32,000 bases of DNA from Coprobacillaceae bacterium (GCA_963675915.1 OY780959.1:60001-92000), one strand, 5' to 3'; positions 5,623 to 31,150 are shown, numbered from the stretch's first letter. A program made the numbers and translations. Notes: generated from the letters alone by a model not told the origin.

Positions 5623-6371
5623 TTATCGATTATCTAAGCAAATACAGTCGCAGTTTCGATTACAAGAAGACGGAACTTTTCCGTGAATATCGTAAAAATT
5701 CCAACCGCCTCAAGGAAAAAAGTTATGATTTGAAAATCAAAAGCAGTTTTGACCTGTACAAATATCAAATAATTATGCGCACCCTTGAAAACGAGACTGA
5801 CATCATCACTCGGATGAAATCGGTGATTGTCGAGAATGACGATTTGATCAAATATCTAAACTATCAGGAACGCCGCAACCTTTATCGGGTGGAAATGAGC
5901 GCCATAGTTGCAAAGATGCGTCATTTGCAGTATGATTCACCTATCTACTTGCCTTGTTTCGACCGGTTGGTCAATGGCCATTTTCTAAATGACTATGAGA
6001 CTTTGAGTCTGAAAAAATATCAGGAAATCCTCAATTCTGACAATCGCAGCTTTGCGGACATGTTCGCTTGCTATGGCTATGACCTTTATAGCAGTGAGTT
6101 TTGCGATTTGAAGACGCTTGATTCAAATAATGAACTGGTCATCTATTATTCAAAAGATTTTGAAGTGATGTATATCATCGATAAAAACGATAATGACGTT
6201 ATCGAACTGGTTTTGAAAGACAAGTGGTTCAAAGGGGACTACCCAATTGAAAATATACGTGAGCTGGGCAATTTGATTGTCAATGACCGCGATGAAGTAT
6301 ATTCTTATTTGCTTGCCCAAAATATGGTAAGCGCCAAATTCGTTAAAAAGATGGAGAAAAAATTACCGTAA
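5619..6371 (+). CDS. Hypothetical protein (250 aa, Y/N/D/K-rich, no domain recognised)
   Basis: The ORF shares an ATGA overlap with the rsmE stop and a TAATG overlap with the mtaB start, so it is translationally coupled inside the operon. Confidence 0.6.
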   Translation: MIIDYLSKYSRSFDYKKTELFREYRKNSNRLKEKSYDLKIKSSFDLYKYQIIMRTLENETDIITRMKSVIVENDDLIKYLNYQERRNLYRVEMSAIVAKMRHLQYDSPIYLPCFDRLVNGHFLNDYETLSLKKYQEILNSDNRSFADMFACYGYDLYSSEFCDLKTLDSNNELVIYYSKDFEVMYIIDKNDNDVIELVLKDKWFKGDYPIENIRELGNLIVNDRDEVYSYLLAQNMVSAKFVKKMEKKLP

Positions 6372-7660
6372 TGAAAAAAGTAGCAATTCACACCCTAGGA
6401 TGCAAAGTAAATAGCTATGAGTCGGAAGCGATGCTCGAGCTTTTCAAAAAAGCCGGATATCAGGAAGTCGATTTCAAGGATGTTGCCGACGTCTATGTCA
6501 TCAATACTTGTACTGTGACCAATACCGGTGACCGCAAGTCGCGTCAGGTCATCCGCCAGGCAATCAAGAGAAACAGCGCTGCGACCGCCTGTGTCGTGGG
6601 ATGTTATTCTCAAGTGGCGAGTGATGAAGTTCTTAAAATAGCCGGAGTCGGAGTAGTGATCGGAACTCGTTATAAAAACATGATTGTCGATTTTGTCGAT
6701 GAGTATCAAAAAACCAATGTTCCGGTAGTCCGGGTCGACGACGTTTTGCGCCTTAGTGAATTCGAAGATCTGCGGATTGAAACTTTCAAGAATACCCGTG
6801 CCTTTTTGAAAATCCAGGATGGCTGCAATAATTTTTGTACCTATTGCATCATTCCCTATAGTCGGGGGAAATTGCGTTCCCGCGATATGGCTGACATAAT
6901 TGCCCAAGTCCGGGAACTGGTGGATAAAGGTTTTGTGGAAATCGTGCTGACGGGAATTCATACTGCCGGATACGGTGAGGACCTCGAAAACTGCACATTC
7001 TACGATTTGCTTGTGGAACTTGTCAAAATCGAAGGACTCAAAAGATTGCGGATTTCTTCAATCGAGACCAGCCAGATATCCGATGAAATAATCAACCTGA
7101 TTGGAAGCAATAAAATAATTGTCGATCATCTTCATGTTCCGATTCAAGCGGGAAGCAATGAGATTCTCTCTAAAATGCGCCGTAAGTACAATTTGGACCA
7201 ATTTGAAGAAAAGATTGCCAAAATTCGTGAAGTCCTGCCAAATATCGCCCTGTCGACCGATATCATTGTCGGTTTTCCCGGCGAGACTGATGAAATGTTC
7301 GAAGAATCGGTAGCGACCCTGGAAAGAATCCGATTCATGCAGCTCCACGTATTCCCATATTCGCCAAGAAAAAACACCCCCGCTGCCAGAATGAAAGACC
7401 AGGTGGACAATCAGGTGAAAAAAGAACGGGTTGCGAAGTTGGTTGAATTATCAAAAAAATTGACAGAGCAATATGCCCGTGCCAATATGGATATCATCCA
7501 GGAAGTTCTCTTTGAAAAGCGTGACGGCGACTATTTGGTCGGTCACAGTTCCAACTATTTGAATATCAAAGTTGCGACCGATCGTGATTTTGTCGGTCAG
7601 ATCATCCCTGTCAAAATCACTGATATTACAGGTGATGAATTTATAGGGGAGATCCAGTAA
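6371..7660 (+). CDS. mtaB: Radical-SAM methylthiotransferase, MtaB (YqeV)-like
   Basis: The N-terminal UPF0004 cysteines (HTLGCKVN, NTCTVT), the radical SAM motif CNNFCTYCIIP, a C-terminal TRAM-like region and the rsmE neighbourhood all fit MtaB. Confidence 0.85.
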   Translation: MKKVAIHTLGCKVNSYESEAMLELFKKAGYQEVDFKDVADVYVINTCTVTNTGDRKSRQVIRQAIKRNSAATACVVGCYSQVASDEVLKIAGVGVVIGTRYKNMIVDFVDEYQKTNVPVVRVDDVLRLSEFEDLRIETFKNTRAFLKIQDGCNNFCTYCIIPYSRGKLRSRDMADIIAQVRELVDKGFVEIVLTGIHTAGYGEDLENCTFYDLLVELVKIEGLKRLRISSIETSQISDEIINLIGSNKIIVDHLHVPIQAGSNEILSKMRRKYNLDQFEEKIAKIREVLPNIALSTDIIVGFPGETDEMFEESVATLERIRFMQLHVFPYSPRKNTPAARMKDQVDNQVKKERVAKLVELSKKLTEQYARANMDIIQEVLFEKRDGDYLVGHSSNYLNIKVATDRDFVGQIIPVKITDITGDEFIGEIQ

Positions 7661-9229: not shown

Positions 9230-9907
9230 CTATTTTTGTTTTGCAGTTACAACGGCAAAATGCAGTGCCAGGAAGGCAACTTCGTCATCGTTGAATTCGA
9301 GATTTAAATCCTCTTTGACAATATCACGAATCACTGATGCGTATTCAAATTCGATTGGATGGCGCTCCTTGATTTGCGCGGTCAATGGATTCGACACTTG
9401 ACGGCCTTCAGCCAGTCTTTCCAAAGCCGGTTCCAGATGCAACCCGATAGCTACGATGAATTTTTGATTTGCGAATATCTCGTTGTTATATAACTCTTTA
9501 ATCCGTTGAAGAGAGACTTTGAGATAGTCGTAAGTCTGGTCATCGAGAAGGTCGATTCCAGTTGTAATTTCCAGATCCAGTGCATTGGTTTTGCGCAGAT
9601 ACATTGTCACCAATGAAATCTCGTTCTCAGGAAATTCAATTCCATATTCCGTAGCGATTGCATCACAGATTTTTTTGGCAATCGGATACAGCTCGTCTTC
9701 TTGGTATTCCAATACTTTGGCTTTAGACAAAGGAATATAGTTTTTATTTTGGATTCTGATAGTAGTTATCGATAAATGAGTTGCCAGATTCTTTTTTGAA
9801 TAAGCAGATAAAAAGACATTGTTACTCTCCACATTGGTCGATAAAATGCTTTGAACATTGCTTTTTACATCATTAAAGGACTCGCTTGTCATAATTTTTC
9901 TTGACAT
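9230..9907 (-). CDS. PRD-domain protein (two PTS regulation domains, no CAT RNA-binding domain)
   Basis: PRD-like signatures are LATHLSITTIRIQN and ENEISLVTMYL (PRD1), then AIGLHLEPALERL and DEVAFLALHF (PRD2). A GGAGGT SD lies 5 nt upstream of ATG 9907. Confidence 0.65.
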   Translation of the reverse strand: MSRKIMTSESFNDVKSNVQSILSTNVESNNVFLSAYSKKNLATHLSITTIRIQNKNYIPLSKAKVLEYQEDELYPIAKKICDAIATEYGIEFPENEISLVTMYLRKTNALDLEITTGIDLLDDQTYDYLKVSLQRIKELYNNEIFANQKFIVAIGLHLEPALERLAEGRQVSNPLTAQIKERHPIEFEYASVIRDIVKEDLNLEFNDDEVAFLALHFAVVTAKQK

Positions 9908-10124
9908 TTCTTACCTCCGCTTTTTAATATATGTTCACTATAATATATTACTATCTAAAAATAAAGGAAAAAATTAAAATAATCGGGTTTATCACTGGAA
10001 TTTTTTTAAAAAAAGGTATATAGTGTAAATGCTAGTGAGAAAACATCTTTTGTAATTGTTCGATACAGGATGGAAAAATAATGATAAGTACTAGTAAAAA
10101 TTAATATGGGGGTATTAAACTTAG

Positions 10125-12188
10125 ATGAATTTCGAAAACGAATGGTCTGGATTTAAAGCCGGGAAATGGAATAAAGAAATCAACTTAAGAGACTTTATTC
10201 AAAAAAACTACACACCTTATGATGGTGATGATAGTTTCTTGGCTGGACCAACTGAAGCAACAACAACATTATGGGATCAAGTAATGGATCTTACTAAACA
10301 AGAAAGAGCTGCTGGTGGTGTTCTTGATATGGACACTAAAGTAGTTGCTACTTTAACTAGTCATGATGCTGGTTACTTAAACAAAGATCTTGAAACAATT
10401 GTCGGATTCCAAACTGACAAACCTTTCAAACGTGCATTGCAACCAAACGGTGGTATCCGTATGGCTTACCAAGCATGTAAAGACAATGGTTATGAGCTTG
10501 ACCCAGAAGTAATTGAAATCTTTACAAAATATCGTAAAACTCACAATGCCGGTGTATTTGATGTATATACAGCAGATATGCGTGCATGTCGTTCTTCTCA
10601 CGTTATCACAGGTTTACCAGATGCTTACGGACGTGGACGTATCATCGGTGACTACCGTCGTATCGCATTATACGGAATTGACCGTTTAATCGAAGACAAA
10701 AAATATCAAAAAGATACTACTCGTGTCCGTATGGATCCAGAAAACATCCAATTACGTGAAGAGTTATCTGAACAAGTACGTGCTTTAGGTGAATTAAAAG
10801 AAATGGCTGCATCTTACGGATGTGACATCTCTAAACCAGCTACTGACGTAAAAGAAGCTATCCAATGGTTATACTTTGGATACTTGGGAGCAGTTAAAGA
10901 ACAAAACGGTGCTGCGATGTCATTAGGTAGAACTTCTACTTTCATCGACATTTATGCAGAACGTGATTTGGCTGCCGGAAAATACACTGAACAAGAAATC
11001 CAAGAATTTGTTGATCATTTCATCATGAAATTAAGATTAGTTAAATTCGCTCGTACTCCAGACTATAATGCAATCTTCGCTGGAGACCCAACTTGGGTAA
11101 CTGAATCAATCGGTGGGGTTGGTATCGACGGACGTCACTTAGTAACTAAGTCTTCTTTCCGTTACTTACATACATTAATCAACTTGGGAACTGCACCAGA
11201 ACCAAACTTGACAGTTTTATGGTCAACTCGTTTACCAGCAAACTTCAAAAAATTCTGTGCTAAAATCTCAATTGAAACTTCATCTATCCAATATGAAAAT
11301 GATGACATGATGCGTGTTACTCATGGTGATGATTATGGTATTGCTTGCTGTGTTTCTTCAATGAGACTTGGTAAAGAAATGCAATTCTTCGGAGCTCGTG
11401 CTAACTTAGCTAAATGTTTATTATACGCAATCAACGGTGGTGTTGATGAAAAATCTAAAAAACAAGTAGGACCTAAATTCCGTCCAATCACATCTGAATA
11501 CTTAGATTACGATGAAGTAATCGAAAAATATGAAGATATGATGGAATGGTTGGCTGACGTTTATGTTAACTCATTAAACATCATCCACTACATGCATGAC
11601 AAATATGCATATGAAAGAATCCAAATGGCTTTACATGACCGTGAAGTAAAACGTTACTTCGCTACAGGTATCGCTGGTCTTTCAGTAGTTGCTGACTCTT
11701 TATCAGCAATCAAATATGCTAAAGTAAAAGTACTTCGTGATGAAGATGGTTTAGCTACTGATTACGAAATCGAAGGTGACTTCCCAACTTACGGTAACGA
11801 TGATGACCGTGTTGATGAATTGGCTAACTGGCTAGTTCATACATTCATGGGATATGTAAAAACTCACTTCACATACAGAAACTCAGTACCTACAACTTCA
11901 ATCTTAACAATCACATCTAACGTTGTATATGGTAACGCAACAGGAAACACTCCTGATGGACGTAAAGCTGGACAACCATTTGCTCCAGGTGCTAACCCAA
12001 TGCACGGACGTGACAAATCAGGTGCTGTATCATCATTAGCTTCAGTTGCGAAATTACCATTCGCTGATGCTCAAGATGGTATCTCTAATACTTTCTCAAT
12101 CATTCCAGGTGCTTTAGGTAAAGATGACCAAGTATTCATGGGAGATATCGAAATAGATCTTAACTTAGAAGATTTAGAAGATAAATAA
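10125..12188 (+). CDS. pflB: Formate C-acetyltransferase (pyruvate formate-lyase) catalytic body, lacking the C-terminal glycyl-radical domain
   Basis: It is collinear with E. coli PflB from the region [11 protein letters not shown], through the active-site IACCVS, to [13 protein letters not shown]. It then diverges into a 17-aa acidic tail ([17 protein letters not shown]) and a stop. Confidence 0.92.
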
Positions 12189-12205
12189 GAAAAGAGGTAA
12201 TTAAC

Positions 12206-12421
12206 ATGTCTAAAGAACAGAATATTGACGATATTGTTAATATGTTGGATTCTTTTGCTCAAAAGGGCAGCGGACATATTAATGTAATCGTAGAGAACCC
12301 TGAAGCAATGGATTCTCAAGAAGCGGCGATTACCGAAGGTTGCAATTGCGAAATCGGTGATACTGCCTGCAAGATTCCTAACATGCCATTGTATGGTGAT
12401 GAAGGATCTAATGAATATTAA
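12206..12421 (+). CDS. Small protein (71 aa) paralogous to the N-terminal part of the glycyl-radical domain, with a Cys-rich C-terminus and no RVSGY motif
   Basis: An AAGAGGT SD lies 7 nt upstream. [29 protein letters not shown] parallels [29 protein letters not shown] of the next ORF. It then continues as [28 protein letters not shown]. Confidence 0.6.
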
Positions 12422-12435
12422 AAGGAGAATTTAAG

Positions 12436-12675
12436 ATGACTAACGAAAAACAAGTAGATAACTTAGTAAGTATGTTAGATGGTTATGTTGACCAAGGTGG
12501 ACACCATTTAAACGTTAACGTATTCAACCGTGATACATTGGTTGATGCTCAAAATCATCCTGAAAAATACCCACAATTAACTGTCAGAGTTAGTGGATAT
12601 GCAGTAAACTTTGTAAAACTTACAAAAGAACAACAAGATGACGTAATTTCTCGTACTTTCCACGAAGGAATGTAA
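12436..12675 (+). CDS. Stand-alone glycyl-radical domain protein (split PFL C-terminus, GrcA/YfiD-like)
   Basis: An AAAGGAG SD lies 8 nt upstream. The protein contains [28 protein letters not shown] and [14 protein letters not shown], matching the last ~75 residues of PflB including the radical glycine. Confidence 0.9.
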
Positions 12676-12676
12676 T

Positions 12677-12704
12677 CTTGAAGATACCTGGAGCTTAATG
12701 CTCC
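12677..12704 (+). terminator. Intrinsic terminator of the pfl unit
   Basis: CCTGGAGC-TTAAT-GCTCCAGG followed by T7. Confidence 0.85.
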
Positions 12705-12888
12705 AGGTTTTTTTATTGCGACATTAAAATAATATATCAATTCCTGAAATTAAATTTCTCAATTATGAAATTATATTTATTTATTAAAAATAATTATTGC
12801 TTCAATAAAAAAATATTGATTTTATCAAAGAAATGTATAATAATATTCGTGTAAAATTACTATTAGGACGAGAAGGAATTTAATTGAA

Positions 12889-13149
12889 ATGAGTTTTTAC
12901 AATACTAGAAATCATGTAAAAGAACTTGATTATGATTACGAAGAAGATTATGAGAATGAAGAATTTTTAGCGTATGATTACGGATTAGATTTAGATGAAA
13001 GTAATGAAGAGGAAGTTGCAGACTTTACAAGAATGATTAAAAAAATGCCGGGAATTGACTTGATGGATCTTTATCAGGAGAGTCATGAATTCACCAAGAA
13101 GGCAATTGAAATTGTTGAAGGTGAGATGAACCGCCGAAAAATCAGATAG
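12889..13149 (+). CDS. Hypothetical small, highly acidic protein (86 aa)
   Basis: The ORF has a weak SD (GAAGGA, 11 nt spacing), an AT-rich upstream region containing TATAAT, and its own terminator. Confidence 0.5.
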   Translation: MSFYNTRNHVKELDYDYEEDYENEEFLAYDYGLDLDESNEEEVADFTRMIKKMPGIDLMDLYQESHEFTKKAIEIVEGEMNRRKIR

Positions 13150-13154
13150 AGATG

Positions 13155-13183
13155 ATGACAGCATTGTAATGCTGTCATTTTTT
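13155..13183 (+). terminator. Intrinsic terminator, which also serves as the group IIC intron target motif
   Basis: ATGACAGCAT-TGTA-ATGCTGTCAT followed by T6. Confidence 0.8.
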
Positions 13184-13708
13184 GGTATGCCGGGCATGGC
13201 ATATATCTAGGTGGTGAAAGTCCACTGTGGGGGTGACGTCGCAACTGCCAACCACTAGCCAATATCAAGGGTGTCCATCGTGAGGTGGAATCTGAAAGAA
13301 GATGGAGGCAAAACCCTGGTCCGAGGTACACAAATCACATATCAGGCAGGTAATGGGGACGAGCGTGCCAAACAACGCGAAGTCATAAGAGGTTGCGGAA
13401 TACAACTATTACATGTAAATGTGGCGGATATATGGGGTGAAAGAGATATGACCTTATCCCGGGAGATCCTGCGAGGGAGCAATCCTAGTAACAACGAATC
13501 GCAAGAAGTCAGCAGACGTCGTAGTAGCGAAGAAGTGGCTGTAATGGCCATGGAGTGAAGGACTGAATGAATCTATCAGTTATTAAAATTAGGCTTGATT
13601 TCATCGCGCGAAACCGCAAAGACAGACGAACACACTATCAAGGCCCGAAAGAAGAATGTAGGGGAAGTGAGCCTGATGAATAGCAAAATCAATGGAGGTA
13701 ACGGAAAT

Positions 13709-14992
13709 ATGAATACTGATAACACATTACTTGAAGAAATGCTTAGTGATATCAATCTCAAAAAGGCATATACCCAAGTAAAACGAAACAAAGGCGCTAG
13801 TGGCGTTGATGGAATGAAAGTATTGGACCTCAAAGGACATCTCGATGAACATCTTGATGAAATAAAGGAAATGATACAAAACAGGAAATACAAACCACAG
13901 CCTGTATTAAGAGTGGAAATACCTAAACTAGATGGTGGAGTTAGAAACCTAGGAGTGCCAACAGTGCTCGACAGGTTCGTTCAACAAGCCATCGCCCAGG
14001 TATTGATTCCTATCTATGAACCCTTGTTCAGCGATAACAGCTACGGTTTTAGACCTAATAGAAATTGTGAGATGGCAATCATCAAATCATTGGAATACAT
14101 GAATGATGGTTTCCAATGGATTGTTGACATTGACTTGGAGAAATTCTTTGATAACATCAACCACGATAAATTGATTACCTTAATCATGAAAGATGTCAAG
14201 AATGGTGAAATTGTATCACTGATAAGAAAATTCCTGGTAAGTGGAATAAGCATTGATGGAGAATACAAAGAGTCAATAATCGGATCAAGCCAAGGAGGGC
14301 CGTTGAGTCCATTGTTGAGTAATATCGTCCTTAACGAACTCGACAAAGAATTGGAGGCTAGAGGGTTGCATTTTACTAGGTACGCTGATGACTGCATGAT
14401 ATTTGTCGGTAGCAGTAAAGCTGCAGATAGAGTTATGGAGAATGTGCGAAAGTTCATTGAAAAGAAGTTGGGGCTCAAGGTCAACATGACCAAAAGCAAA
14501 GTATCCAAACCAAATGATATCAAATACTTGGGATTTGGATTCTATTATGACAACTTCAGCCAGTCATGGAAAGCCAAACCACATGCTAAATCAATAGCTA
14601 TCTTGAAAGATAAGCTCAGAGAACTGACTAATAGAAGTTGGTCAGTATCATGGGAATTTCGCCGAATGAAAATAAGGCAACTTATTGTCGGGTGGATCAA
14701 TTACTACCGAATCGGAAATTTCAAATCCAAATGTGCAAGGCTGGATGGCTGGATTAGATTTAGAATCCGAATGTACCTGTGGAAGAAATGGAAAACCATC
14801 AAGAACCGTAGAAAACAGTTGAGAAAACTAGGGGCCCAAAGATGGCAATATGAATCATGGTCAAATTCCAGGAAATCATATGCCCGCTGTGCAAGCACGT
14901 TTCTGCGAACCAAAATAACAAACAAAGTACTCAAAAGAAATGGTCTAGCATCACTGCTAGACCAATATCAGTTAAAACATATTTTAGTATAG
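13709..14992 (+). CDS. ltrA: Group II intron reverse transcriptase/maturase (no En domain)
   Basis: RT motifs present are GVDGM, FRPNR, DIDLEKFFDNINH, SQGGPLSPLLSNIVLNELD and RYADDCMIF; the X domain is GWINYYRIGN. I prefer ATG 13709 (GGAGGT SD 9 nt upstream). ATG 13676 and the track start 13595 are alternatives. Confidence 0.9.
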   Translation: MNTDNTLLEEMLSDINLKKAYTQVKRNKGASGVDGMKVLDLKGHLDEHLDEIKEMIQNRKYKPQPVLRVEIPKLDGGVRNLGVPTVLDRFVQQAIAQVLIPIYEPLFSDNSYGFRPNRNCEMAIIKSLEYMNDGFQWIVDIDLEKFFDNINHDKLITLIMKDVKNGEIVSLIRKFLVSGISIDGEYKESIIGSSQGGPLSPLLSNIVLNELDKELEARGLHFTRYADDCMIFVGSSKAADRVMENVRKFIEKKLGLKVNMTKSKVSKPNDIKYLGFGFYYDNFSQSWKAKPHAKSIAILKDKLRELTNRSWSVSWEFRRMKIRQLIVGWINYYRIGNFKSKCARLDGWIRFRIRMYLWKKWKTIKNRRKQLRKLGAQRWQYESWSNSRKSYARCASTFLRTKITNKVLKRNGLASLLDQYQLKHILV

Positions 14993-14998
14993 ATTTAA

Positions 14999-15032
14999 AC
15001 CGCCGTATGCCGGACGGCACGTACGGTGGTGT
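14999..15032 (+). ncRNA. Intron 1 domain V
   Basis: ACCGCCGUAUGCCGGACGGCACGUACGGUGGUG is nearly identical to the O. iheyensis domain V (CCGCCGUAUACCGAACGGUACGUACGGUGG). Confidence 0.85.
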
Positions 15033-15148
15033 GAGAGGTCGGAAATAAAATTTTATTTATTTCCTCCTACTCGATTCCTTTATTCATCAATATCAGAATA
15101 TTGAGAATGCGTTGATTCAAATCAGAATATTAATGTGAGTTATCACAT

Positions 15149-15963: not shown

Positions 15964-18142
15964 GTGCGACAGGCAGTCGCTTAGATGCCATGTATACAGG
16001 TACATGGCATTTTCCTTTTATAAATGAGTTCCTGTAATAGTTCGCTATCAATACAGTAAATATCATGGAATAGGGAAACCCTGTAGGTGTAAGTCCTATC
16101 CCGTGCGCACTGGTGCTATTCGGGAAATCTAGTCTAGGGCATAATCGGGAGATTGTGTTTGAAGGAGACGCAGTAGTCGAGAGACCTGTAGATGAGTTGG
16201 CAGGCCGAAACGAAAAGTGAATCACATGTTGCGGCAGTGGAGAATGTGACGACGTTGCGAAAGGTGCGGAAGTCTATTCACGACATATTCTAAGAACCAG
16301 TCGAATATGCCGGCACTCCATTGTGAAGGTGATTGGCATGTCAACAAGGGCGTAGTTGATGACCCTGTGAGACCTCTTCATCCACCGAAAGGATAATCAT
16401 CTATAAGAGTCATTCGAAGTGATGGTTATATGAAGAGGAGTCAGACAATCTCATAGTAGTGAAGTAGTCATGCGACCAAACGTTTGGCGAAGCGAAGGGG
16501 ATTGACCTTTTACAATTCTTACTTTGTTTAATCGTAATGGTAAGAATGACGGTACTTAGGTACAAACGAATTCAAAGAACGATAAATAGAAAGAGAGGTT
16601 TGAAATTATGAATGAACCGTTGAAATTGAAGTGGCATTCTCTGTATGGACAAATACTCCAGGACAGGAAAATACTAGAAGCATGGAAGCAGGTAAAAGCA
16701 AATCATGGAAGTGGAGGGATTGATGGGGTAACCATTGAACGCTTCATGGAAAATGAACAAGACAATCTGGACAAGCTACTGGAAGAACTGAGATTAAAGG
16801 AATATAGACCAACCCCTGTAAGGCGAGTATATATCCCTAAGAAAAACGGAAAGAGAAGACCATTGGGAATACCAATAGTCAAAGATCGGATAGTTCAGCA
16901 GGTGCTAACCAATATCCTAACCCCAAAATATGAGGCAGGAATATTCCATCACTGGTCAGTTGGCTACCGCCCGAATCGTGGTGTCGACAGTGCCATGCAG
17001 ATTATCATCAAGAACATCGAGGAAGGAAGAAACTGGATATACGATTGTGATATCAAAGGGTTCTTCGATAACATTCCCCATAAAAAGTTGATGAAGGTAT
17101 TGAATAAATGCATCGCTGATGGGACTGTTCTTGATTTGATTTGGTCATGGCTCAAAGCGGGATACATGGAAGACGGCAAACATATGCAAAGCAAAAGTGG
17201 AACACCGCAAGGTGGCGTTATTTCACCTCTACTTGCAAACATCTACCTGAACGAACTGGATTGGAAGTTGCACGAGGCAAAGATTCACTTCGTGCGTTAT
17301 GCCGATGATTTTCTCTTGTTTGCGAAAACAGAAGAAGAAATTGAGAGGGCAGGAAAGATAGCCAGAGAAGTGATTCAATCATTGGGATTGGAAATGGCTA
17401 TGGACAAAACCAAAGTGGTGGACTTTAAAAATGATAATTTTACATTTCTTGGATTTGACTTCAAACACTGGAGGAAAAACAAGAAAGGTGAAGACTACTA
17501 TTTCATAGTTCCCACCGCCAAGTCGCTCAAAGACTTCAAAAAGAAAATCAAGGATAAGACGCAAAGAAAGTGGACATTTTCTCAGGATAAATGGGTAAGC
17601 ATGCTTAACCCGATTATAGTTGGTAAAGTCAATTACTACCTGAACGTCTACAAAGCACTGGAAATATTCAAGAAGCACAATTACAAAACCCGGTGTAATA
17701 TCAAGATAATGGGATGGAAGCTCAATAAAATTGATCAGTATATCCGGCATAGATTGCGGATGTGCATGTTGCATAAACACCCGACAATCAGGAGGGCATC
17801 TGGAATGAATGTGAAATGGAATCTCAAATTCTTCGCACTGATAGGTTTGAAACCGGCAAATTGGTATTATTTCAATGTTATGTATGACTATCCGATTGAA
17901 ATTTATGTCCAAAATCAACAGAGCAAAAATAGAACTCGCGCAAAGAAAAATGCCGAACGCGACAGAAAATTGGGAACTAAAAGATACACAAAACAAAAAT
18001 TCACAAAAATAGCCTACTCTTTTAGCAAGTAGACTATAATCATTCATAAAATCAGATTTAGTAAATTGGTAAGCCGTATGCGTTAATAGCGCATGTGCGG
18101 TTTGATAAGGGGCTAGCTTAGAAATAAGTTAGCCTACTTTAT
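15964..18142 (+). mobile_element. Second, unrelated group II intron with an RT/maturase ORF (3' end approximate, +/-10 nt)
   Basis: The 5' end is GUGCGAC at 15964, with 644 nt of ribozyme before the ORF. Domain V is AAGCCGUAUGCG...CGCAUGUGCGGUUU (18071-18103) with an AGC triad. Domain VI is a hairpin with a bulged A (18136), and the 3' end is about CUUUAU. Confidence 0.8.
16608..18032 (+). CDS. Group II intron reverse transcriptase/maturase (no En domain)
   Basis: RT motifs present are GIDGV, YRPNRG, DCDIKGFFDNIPH, TPQGGVISPLLANIYLNELD and RYADDFLLF. The X domain is GKVNYYLNVY and the C-terminal tail is basic. Confidence 0.9.
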   Translation: MNEPLKLKWHSLYGQILQDRKILEAWKQVKANHGSGGIDGVTIERFMENEQDNLDKLLEELRLKEYRPTPVRRVYIPKKNGKRRPLGIPIVKDRIVQQVLTNILTPKYEAGIFHHWSVGYRPNRGVDSAMQIIIKNIEEGRNWIYDCDIKGFFDNIPHKKLMKVLNKCIADGTVLDLIWSWLKAGYMEDGKHMQSKSGTPQGGVISPLLANIYLNELDWKLHEAKIHFVRYADDFLLFAKTEEEIERAGKIAREVIQSLGLEMAMDKTKVVDFKNDNFTFLGFDFKHWRKNKKGEDYYFIVPTAKSLKDFKKKIKDKTQRKWTFSQDKWVSMLNPIIVGKVNYYLNVYKALEIFKKHNYKTRCNIKIMGWKLNKIDQYIRHRLRMCMLHKHPTIRRASGMNVKWNLKFFALIGLKPANWYYFNVMYDYPIEIYVQNQQSKNRTRAKKNAERDRKLGTKRYTKQKFTKIAYSFSK

Positions 18143-30476: not shown

Positions 30477-30482
30477 ACAGCC

Positions 30483-30556
30483 GTGAACAGGGGTGCCGTT
30501 TTGGCTGAGAAATACCCTTATCACCTGATCTAGTTAGGACTAGCGTAGGGAGTTAC
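30483..30556 (+). promoter_or_regulatory. TPP (THI-box) riboswitch
   Basis: GGGGUGC...GCUGAGA...ACCC...ACCUGAUCUAGUUAGGACUAGCGUAGGGA matches the THI element core. Downstream, CGCCUC (30583-30588) can pair with the SD GAGGUG (30599-30604), which suggests translational control. Confidence 0.9.
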
Positions 30557-30610
30557 AAATTTAATAATTATCTTATTCCTTGCGCCTCAAAAAATTCGGA
30601 GGTGTTATTA

Positions 30611-31150
30611 ATGAAAGTCAAAGATCTAGTTTTCATGGCGATGTATATTGCTCTAGCTTTAGTATTGGATTATGTTTCGGAATTGATTCCATTTTTGCAG
30701 ATGCCGATGGGTGGCAGCATCAATCTGGCAGTGATTCCGGTGCTTGTGGCATCGTATCACATGGGGTGGAAAAATGGAGCCCTGGTGGGACTTTTATGGT
30801 GGTTTGTCGGGTTCGTGATGTTCGGATTCAACCGCTGGTATCTTAATCCGTCCCAATACCTGTTGGATTACATTATTCCGGCTGCAATTTTGGGATTTGC
30901 GAGTATCATGCCAAAATTCGGCATGAAAAACAATTTGTATACCGGGATCGTGATTGTTTCGGTATTGCGATTTACCTGCAACCTGCTATCGGGAGTGTTC
31001 TTCTATTTCCCTGAAGGTTCAGCTCCGGGAAGTCTGGGGGCCTGGATTTATTCATTCAATTACAATATCTGGTACAATCTGGCGACCATGGTGGCAGCAA
31101 TTATTATTGCTCCAATCCTGATCAAAAGACTGCCTCATACAAAGTTATAA
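30611..31150 (+). CDS. thiT: Thiamine transporter, ECF S-component ThiT
   Basis: It lies downstream of the TPP riboswitch and is a 179-aa protein with about 6 TM segments. I place the start at ATG 30611 (GGAGG SD, 8 nt spacing). Confidence 0.85.
   Translation: MKVKDLVFMAMYIALALVLDYVSELIPFLQMPMGGSINLAVIPVLVASYHMGWKNGALVGLLWWFVGFVMFGFNRWYLNPSQYLLDYIIPAAILGFASIMPKFGMKNNLYTGIVIVSVLRFTCNLLSGVFFYFPEGSAPGSLGAWIYSFNYNIWYNLATMVAAIIIAPILIKRLPHTKL

Follow-up and report, generated by a model that had tools for sequence, protein, structure and literature searches.

Many gut anaerobes convert pyruvate to acetyl-CoA and formate mainly by means of pyruvate formate-lyase (PFL). The closest described counterparts of the system presented here are PflB of Escherichia coli with its partner YfiD/GrcA (TIGR04365) and Y06I of phage T4, where, as proposed for GrcA3 below, a small free protein with an RVSGYAV loop as well as a helix at its C-terminus supplies the radical in trans. 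The body of the E. coli enzyme is full length and GrcA serves as an emergency replacement, which rescues PFL after cleavage by oxygen (PMC8683613; reviewed in PMC13450708). Engineered pairs of tPFL (residues 1-695) or cPFL (1-733) with YfiD likewise represent a two-piece PFL, in which the remnant beside the break matters for binding: residues 696-733 of the oxygen-cleaved enzyme are required for YfiD to bind, and tPFL together with YfiD reaches wild-type activity once activated (PMC8683613). Here, we describe a locus of a Coprobacillaceae bacterium at which the catalytic body of PFL (687 aa), a middle protein (71 aa) and the glycyl radical protein GrcA3 (79 aa) are encoded by three consecutive cistrons; the window, i.e., the whole stretch analysed, comprises 32,000 nt (GCA_963675915.1 OY780959.1:60001-92000), and its coordinates are used throughout. 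We consider it quite likely, judging from the sequence comparisons presented here, that these cistrons encode an obligately multi-subunit PFL, and the core of this proposal, namely that the split is natural and functional, is supported by comparison with related genomes. Other glycyl radical enzymes also combine a large barrel with small, partly Cys-rich subunits, e.g., benzylsuccinate synthase (alpha-beta-gamma) and 4-hydroxyphenylacetate decarboxylase; there, however, the radical glycine is located on the large subunit and not, as here, on a small one.

The largest of the three proteins matches the Pfam family PF02901 (PFL-like) with residues 19-603 (E 1.7e-219) and, over positions 2-666 of the 744 in the profile, reaches 1126.8 bits against the PFL equivalog model TIGR01255, for which the cut-off is 994.2. 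It aligns to residues 9-681 of E. coli PFL, the alignment ending at chain residue 681, and Cys408 and Cys409 within the motif IACCVSS fall on C418 and C419 of the E. coli enzyme. The Gly_radical profile of Pfam is reached at positions 1-51 of 106 only, and the RVSGY glycyl radical domain that a PFL is expected to carry on the same polypeptide is found on the separate 79-aa open reading frame (ORF). This small protein aligns to E. coli PFL 679-759, with Gly54 at the place of Gly734, and matches Gly_radical positions 50-106; body (9-681) and GrcA3 (679-759) together tile E. coli PFL with neither gap nor duplication.

At NCBI, the 79-aa ORF falls into the family NF038360 (GrcA3), a name carried by many genomes, with 166.6 bits (cut-off 158) and a full-length match to positions 2-78 of 78. 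Against the GrcA family TIGR04365 it reaches 93.9 bits, below the cut-off of 170, over profile positions 67-125 only. Residues 20-78 of GrcA3 align to E. coli GrcA 68-126, but the 60-residue disordered N-terminus of GrcA is missing and a helix equivalent to PflB 681-693 takes its place. The break is located at E. coli residue ~680, about 15 residues earlier than in the artificial tPFL and upstream of a helix and the barrel strand beta10, so that the small protein carries both elements besides the glycine loop. These alignments show GrcA3 to be the domain that the body lacks, made up of helix, barrel strand beta10, Gly54 loop and C-terminal helix. A preliminary description of this DNA had reported the 687-aa and 79-aa ORFs exactly as found here and had noted the intact CC active site and radical motif, all of which agrees with our analysis. 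It had further placed the break in the linker preceding the domain that flips out for activation; the radical domain is indeed separate, but the break lies further upstream, ahead of helix and beta10.

The same division of the enzyme recurs in a wide range of related bacteria, gut-type Firmicutes of at least 80 other species. With the body as query, one genome per species was scanned and the 80 best-matching species loci (74-81% identical) were taken, which belong to Lachnospiraceae, Ruminococcus, Christensenellaceae, Acetivibrio and others. In all 80, the PFL ORF ends at 678-719 aa without a radical domain of its own and is succeeded by a GrcA3 ORF, except in two loci, both of them situated at a contig end. 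Including further relatives, the break occupies the same position in 87 of 87 loci (among them the 80 species), from Lachnospiraceae to Helcococcus. Five close loci found via the middle protein (L001-L005; a 2.9-Mb genome and independent metagenome assemblies) share both the 687/71/79 triplet and its neighbours with the window, and have a body 92% identical to that of the window. At least 24 contigs of a sister species, all assembled independently, contain the triplet, as does the 2.9-Mb genome, and the exact proteins of the window are on record from a 2.6-Mb contig. In Helcococcus, the order is body (718 aa), GrcA3 (79 aa) and the activase PflA (256 aa), and of the 80 relatives, no fewer than 53 have a gene with a typical PflA N-terminus right after grcA3. 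One split-PFL locus (L017, 8994-10778) also encodes a glycyl radical enzyme of the PFL2 type that has kept its radical domain on the same polypeptide; in that genome, the split is consequently confined to PFL proper.

In comparison with the two nearest relatives (dS 0.7-1.7), the body has a dN/dS of 0.05-0.06 and its tail one of 0.05-0.13, with values of 0.05-0.07 in the middle ORF and 0.06-0.08 in grcA3; each of the three ORFs evolves under strong purifying selection. An artefact of sequencing or assembly, or a pseudogene that arose recently in a single strain, has nothing in its favour beyond prior expectation and is hardly credible any longer: the triplet is present in the independent assemblies listed above, the split is kept across bacterial families and dN/dS is low, by which this explanation is already refuted. 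Since the split is shared by relatives, dN/dS is low and pflA adjoins in most of them, we regard an artefact, a recent pseudogene and a translational fusion as ruled out or highly improbable. The preliminary description had argued for a functional natural split rather than a pseudogene and had named as the findings that would overturn this an artefact, or a strain-specific split accompanied by a second intact pflB and unexpressed fragments; the former view is borne out by the 87 loci with the same break, and both artefact and strain specificity are ruled out by the independent assemblies and the 80 species.

A further possibility is that GrcA3 is only a spare part for a full-length PFL encoded elsewhere, which would leave the truncated body as an inactive remnant or with some other role. 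The NCBI family name, "autonomous glycyl radical cofactor," points in this direction, as does the ability of E. coli GrcA to work with full-length or cleaved PflB. However, the body has a dN/dS of 0.05, surpasses all other genes of the window in expression-type codon bias and scores above the PFL equivalog cut-off, the order body-GrcA3-PflA is kept in dozens of species, and the 80 closest PFL genes are all without a radical domain of their own. In the window and the 87 related loci, the partner body lacks the very domain that a replacement for oxygen-cleaved full-length PFL would stand in for, and GrcA3 would be the sole source of the radical in these relatives, unlike in E. coli. We therefore regard a pure spare-part role as quite improbable.

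The operon itself is compact. The body-to-grcA3 interval of 247 bp, given as 250 bp in the preliminary description, contains the conserved middle ORF, separated from the body by 17 nt and from grcA3 by 14 nt. The 79-aa ORF is preceded by AAGGAG 8 nt before its ATG, in agreement with the Shine-Dalgarno site reported before, and the middle ORF has its own AAGAGG site before the start. No terminator-like hairpin was found between the three cistrons; the sole one in the region follows the 79-aa ORF, as expected for the shared terminator already proposed (Table 1). The three ORFs occupy three different reading frames, so that read-through is unable to join them. Frameshifting, bypassing or protein splicing could in principle still restore one PFL of normal length, as the pieces are collinear with the full-length enzyme and the spacers short. 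This appears highly improbable to us: besides lying in different frames, each ORF has its own Shine-Dalgarno site and ATG, the spacer between body and GrcA3 varies from 3 to about 980 bp among relatives, the middle ORF repeats the beginning of GrcA3 instead of bridging to it, and no intron or intein families were found at the locus.

Codon usage differs among the three genes. CGT accounts for 80% of the Arg codons in the body, and body and grcA3 show the strongest expression-type usage in the window, whereas the middle ORF shows ordinary usage, with an NNC fraction, in this small sample, of 0.21 vs. 0.61 and 0.52 for its neighbours. The strong codon bias of the preliminary description thus applies to the 687-aa and 79-aa ORFs, but not to the middle one. 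This lack of bias hints that the middle protein could be made in smaller amounts than, i.e., be sub-stoichiometric to, body and GrcA3.

Table 1. Features of the split PFL operon (window coordinates).
Feature	Coordinates	Strand	Remarks
Promoter-like site TTGACA-18-TAATAT	9901..9930	+	~195 nt 5' of body start; consensus scan only
PFL catalytic body	10125..12188	+	687 aa; full barrel; Cys408/Cys409 (11346-11351); without radical glycine
Acidic tail of body, conserved	12135..12185	+	17 aa; strand-like alternating pattern
Middle protein	12206..12421	+	71 aa; copy of radical-domain start (residues 1-31), then Cys module
GrcA3, glycyl radical subunit	12436..12675	+	79 aa; Gly54 in RVSGYAV (12595-12597), predicted radical site
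Intrinsic terminator closing the three-gene operon	12686..12718	+	9-bp stem (6 GC pairs) and T-run; hairpin 12686-12708

The preliminary description had proposed a two-subunit PFL, which holds for the split into body and radical piece; the related loci, however, feature three conserved parts, the third being either the 71-aa protein or a Cys-bearing tail of the body. Residues 1-31 of the middle protein correspond to residues 1-31 of GrcA3 (hhalign probability 95.8%, E 7e-9), and its first ~38 residues match the GrcA3 model NF038360 below threshold (27 bits vs. 158). By sequence, the middle protein thus begins as a copy of the radical-domain helix and the G-H-x-N-V strand and then diverges into a Cys module, which comprises C46, C48 and C55 (codons 12341-12343, 12347-12349 and 12368-12370) as well as P58. 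Clustering of the family to which it belongs yields 2276 groups at 90% identity and 275 at 50%, with lengths that nearly always fall within 45-140 aa; all of its members are unnamed or hypothetical and without a Pfam match. The window protein itself has no Pfam match, no relative in the PDB and no NCBIfam membership above threshold. Within 49 sequences of the family, G23, H24, C48, C55 and P58 are invariant. An equivalence of the Cys half (AC-x-VPTL) with KYPQLT ahead of the glycine loop, suggested by MAFFT, was dropped, as hhalign aligned residues 1-31 only.

Two architectures were observed among the 87 loci. In 62 of them, the body ends with ...ALGK(E/D)DQVF-x-GD(I/L)E(L/V/I)DL... and a middle ORF of 60-85 aa with the Cys module follows, whereas 24 have no middle ORF and instead a longer, Cys-bearing body tail, e.g., GDIEVELDCANGACSTPTLFEGLD or FELEPDCACCEPN. 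The one locus with neither form is on a contig that ends 87 nt past the body. Being present in every complete locus, on the tail or on the middle ORF, the Cys module seems to be a mandatory component, supplied either in cis or in trans. A 12-mer, ACS(V/T)PTLFEGLD, is common to middle ORFs and some tails (11 of 12 residues shared), but the long Cys-bearing tails, taken as a set, show no more than a weak alignment with the middle family (probability 26%), and by eye only the PTLFEGLD subset is clearly related to the middle protein.

The short acidic tail of the window body is conserved as well. The preliminary description had considered these 17 residues unrelated, but the motif VF-x-GD(I/L)(E/D)(I/V/L)(D/E)L is kept in all related bodies and the tail aligns to residues 688-702 of the PDB chain 38lb_A. 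The N-terminal region of E. coli GrcA contains a segment, LGDIEY, whose similarity to the tail was rejected as chance (probability 0.2%). Neither acidic tail nor Cys module has a counterpart in E. coli, which distinguishes the natural split from the engineered one.

Considering these findings together, PflA, encoded outside the window, could abstract a hydrogen from Gly54 of GrcA3, and GrcA3 would dock into the body, completing the ten-stranded barrel and setting Gly54 beside Cys409/Cys408 for pyruvate cleavage. Upon cleavage of the radical site by oxygen, only the 9-kDa subunit would have to be replaced, while the 77-kDa body could be reused; the enzyme would permanently be in the state that E. 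coli PFL reaches only after repair by YfiD/GrcA. Such an exchangeable radical subunit in a permanently repaired configuration is probably what the locus encodes, considering the strong comparative evidence. More speculatively, the middle protein might represent a glycine-less decoy of the radical domain, a role that the Cys-bearing body tail could fulfil elsewhere, and might occupy or guide the docking site while the radical subunit is unbound, akin to residues 696-733 of oxygen-cleaved E. coli PFL that are needed for YfiD binding. As a working hypothesis, tail and middle protein could both be what is left, without the glycine, of a radical domain that was duplicated, now holding or guiding the docking site, and the two invariant cysteines might form a metal or redox element.

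An alternative option for the third component, compatible with the split enzyme as such, would be that the Cys module of middle protein or tail is no decoy but a separate functional unit, contributing a metal site, an Fe-S cluster or a radical-quenching or -relaying thiol and acting as built-in deactivase or redox sensor. Consistently, two cysteines and the proline are invariant in the 49 sequences, the module is part of every locus in cis or in trans, and the Cys half cannot be aligned to any part of GrcA3. Matches to known metal-binding or redox families were, however, absent from Pfam, NCBIfam and PDB, some members have only two cysteines, and the isolated middle protein is predicted to be disordered, so that we consider this option unlikely. 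A further option, likewise less likely than not, is an extension of the decoy model in which PFL would be a three-state exchange machine. The Cys-bearing decoy would plug the open barrel and shield the active-site cysteines of the resting body, GrcA3, activated free in solution by PflA, would displace it, and after oxygen damage the broken GrcA3 would leave and the decoy return; the invariant Cys pair might form a latch based on a metal or on redox chemistry, perhaps jointly with Cys408/409. If true, this would be the first glycyl radical enzyme with a freely exchangeable radical subunit and a dedicated placeholder.

Several observations weigh against an obligately multi-subunit PFL or against parts of the proposed mechanism. 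The enzymatic function of the operon is inferred from sequence alone, and no pflA was found in the 32-kb window, where positions 6371-7660 hold a radical-SAM gene of a different kind, namely of the UPF0004 methylthiotransferase type. Our survey for a full-length PFL was confined to the window and the related loci, which counts in favour of a spare-part role of GrcA3. In addition, engineered tPFL binds and activates YfiD poorly (PMC8683613), so that a natural split would need compensating contacts. Structure prediction added little: AlphaFold2 on the single body sequence gave a pLDDT of 34 and an unusable model, with which Foldseek returned only E. coli PFL entries, and the middle protein, modelled with the 49-sequence alignment, reached a pLDDT of 50 with a helix at residues 3-19 only. 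For the tail segment GDIEIDL as a degenerate copy of strand beta10 or of the middle protein, hhalign gave the matching register at a probability of only 5.6%, so that this homology lacks statistical support. Finally, the codon bias of the two adjoining genes is missing from the middle ORF, and the role of its product as a decoy is a guess.

With respect to published records, the best structural relatives of the body are the PDB chains 38lb_A (739 residues) and 38la_A (687 residues), both entitled "formate acetyltransferase" and both without the radical domain. They are two different proteins: 38la ends with ...SLGKED, whereas 38lb continues into a Cys-containing tail (GECDMCEM) and aligns through the acidic tail of the window body. 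GrcA3 matches neither chain. Both originate from organisms other than those of the related loci, the aligned part of 38lb being at most ~74% identical to these. As 38la and 38lb are absent from the Foldseek copy of the PDB ending 2026-04-08, they were probably released later, and others are probably at work on split PFL. The family NF038360, in turn, is named as a spare part and is silent on the neighbouring PFL without radical domain, and the middle protein is not covered by it. In the full-text literature, we found no account of an obligately split PFL, of GrcA3, of the middle protein or of 38la/38lb; a review on glycyl radical enzymes from June 2026 treats YfiD only as a spare part (PMC13450708), and papers on Mycoplasma girerdii name PFL alongside GrcA and say nothing of a truncated PFL. 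The split PFL is consequently recorded in databases, as GrcA3 and as PDB chains, and not described in the literature found; the preliminary description was aware of no described two-piece PFL, which agrees with the literature found as regards a natural split, but not with these database entries.

Apart from the PFL operon, further features of the window were observed. A leader of ~195 nt separates the promoter-like site from the PFL start; promoter-like sites in the region are, by the consensus scan, not more numerous than expected from shuffled sequence. Divergent from the operon, a 225-aa protein with two PRD domains is encoded at 9230-9907 (-), in which an RNA-binding CAT domain was not detected; its position is kept in L001-L005 and it may be a sugar-responsive regulator. 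An ORF for a very acidic 86-aa protein (12889-13149), for which no Pfam or NCBIfam family was found, has its own terminator-like hairpin (13154-13179) and is located directly 3' of the PFL operon in L001-L005. The window also contains two group II introns, at 13274-15075 (Rfam D1-D4 13274-13563, D5-D6 14998-15075, RT/maturase ORF 13595-14992) and at about 16500-18142 (RT/maturase ORF 16608-18032, D5-D6 18069-18142). L001-L005 feature a PRD/PTS regulator after the 86-aa ORF where the window has these introns, i.e., the region differs from that of the sister species. A TPP riboswitch (30479-30568; 65.5 bits) is located upstream of a gene for a ThiT/YuaJ-type thiamine transporter (30602-31150).

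The split form of PFL is the version present in the sampled genomes of Lachnospiraceae, Ruminococcus, Oscillospiraceae, Erysipelotrichaceae and Helcococcus. In current annotation, the plain label formate C-acetyltransferase for the body and that of a spare part for the small protein hide their mutual dependency. In this context, the middle protein ties an unnamed family of ~2300 sequence clusters to a central metabolic enzyme, and the split enzyme offers a natural system for studying access of the activase to the otherwise buried glycine and docking of a free radical domain. If the radical domain is indeed a separate subunit, the repair known from E. coli would have been made permanent in these bacteria, with a 77-kDa body that survives oxygen and a 9-kDa piece that is sacrificed.

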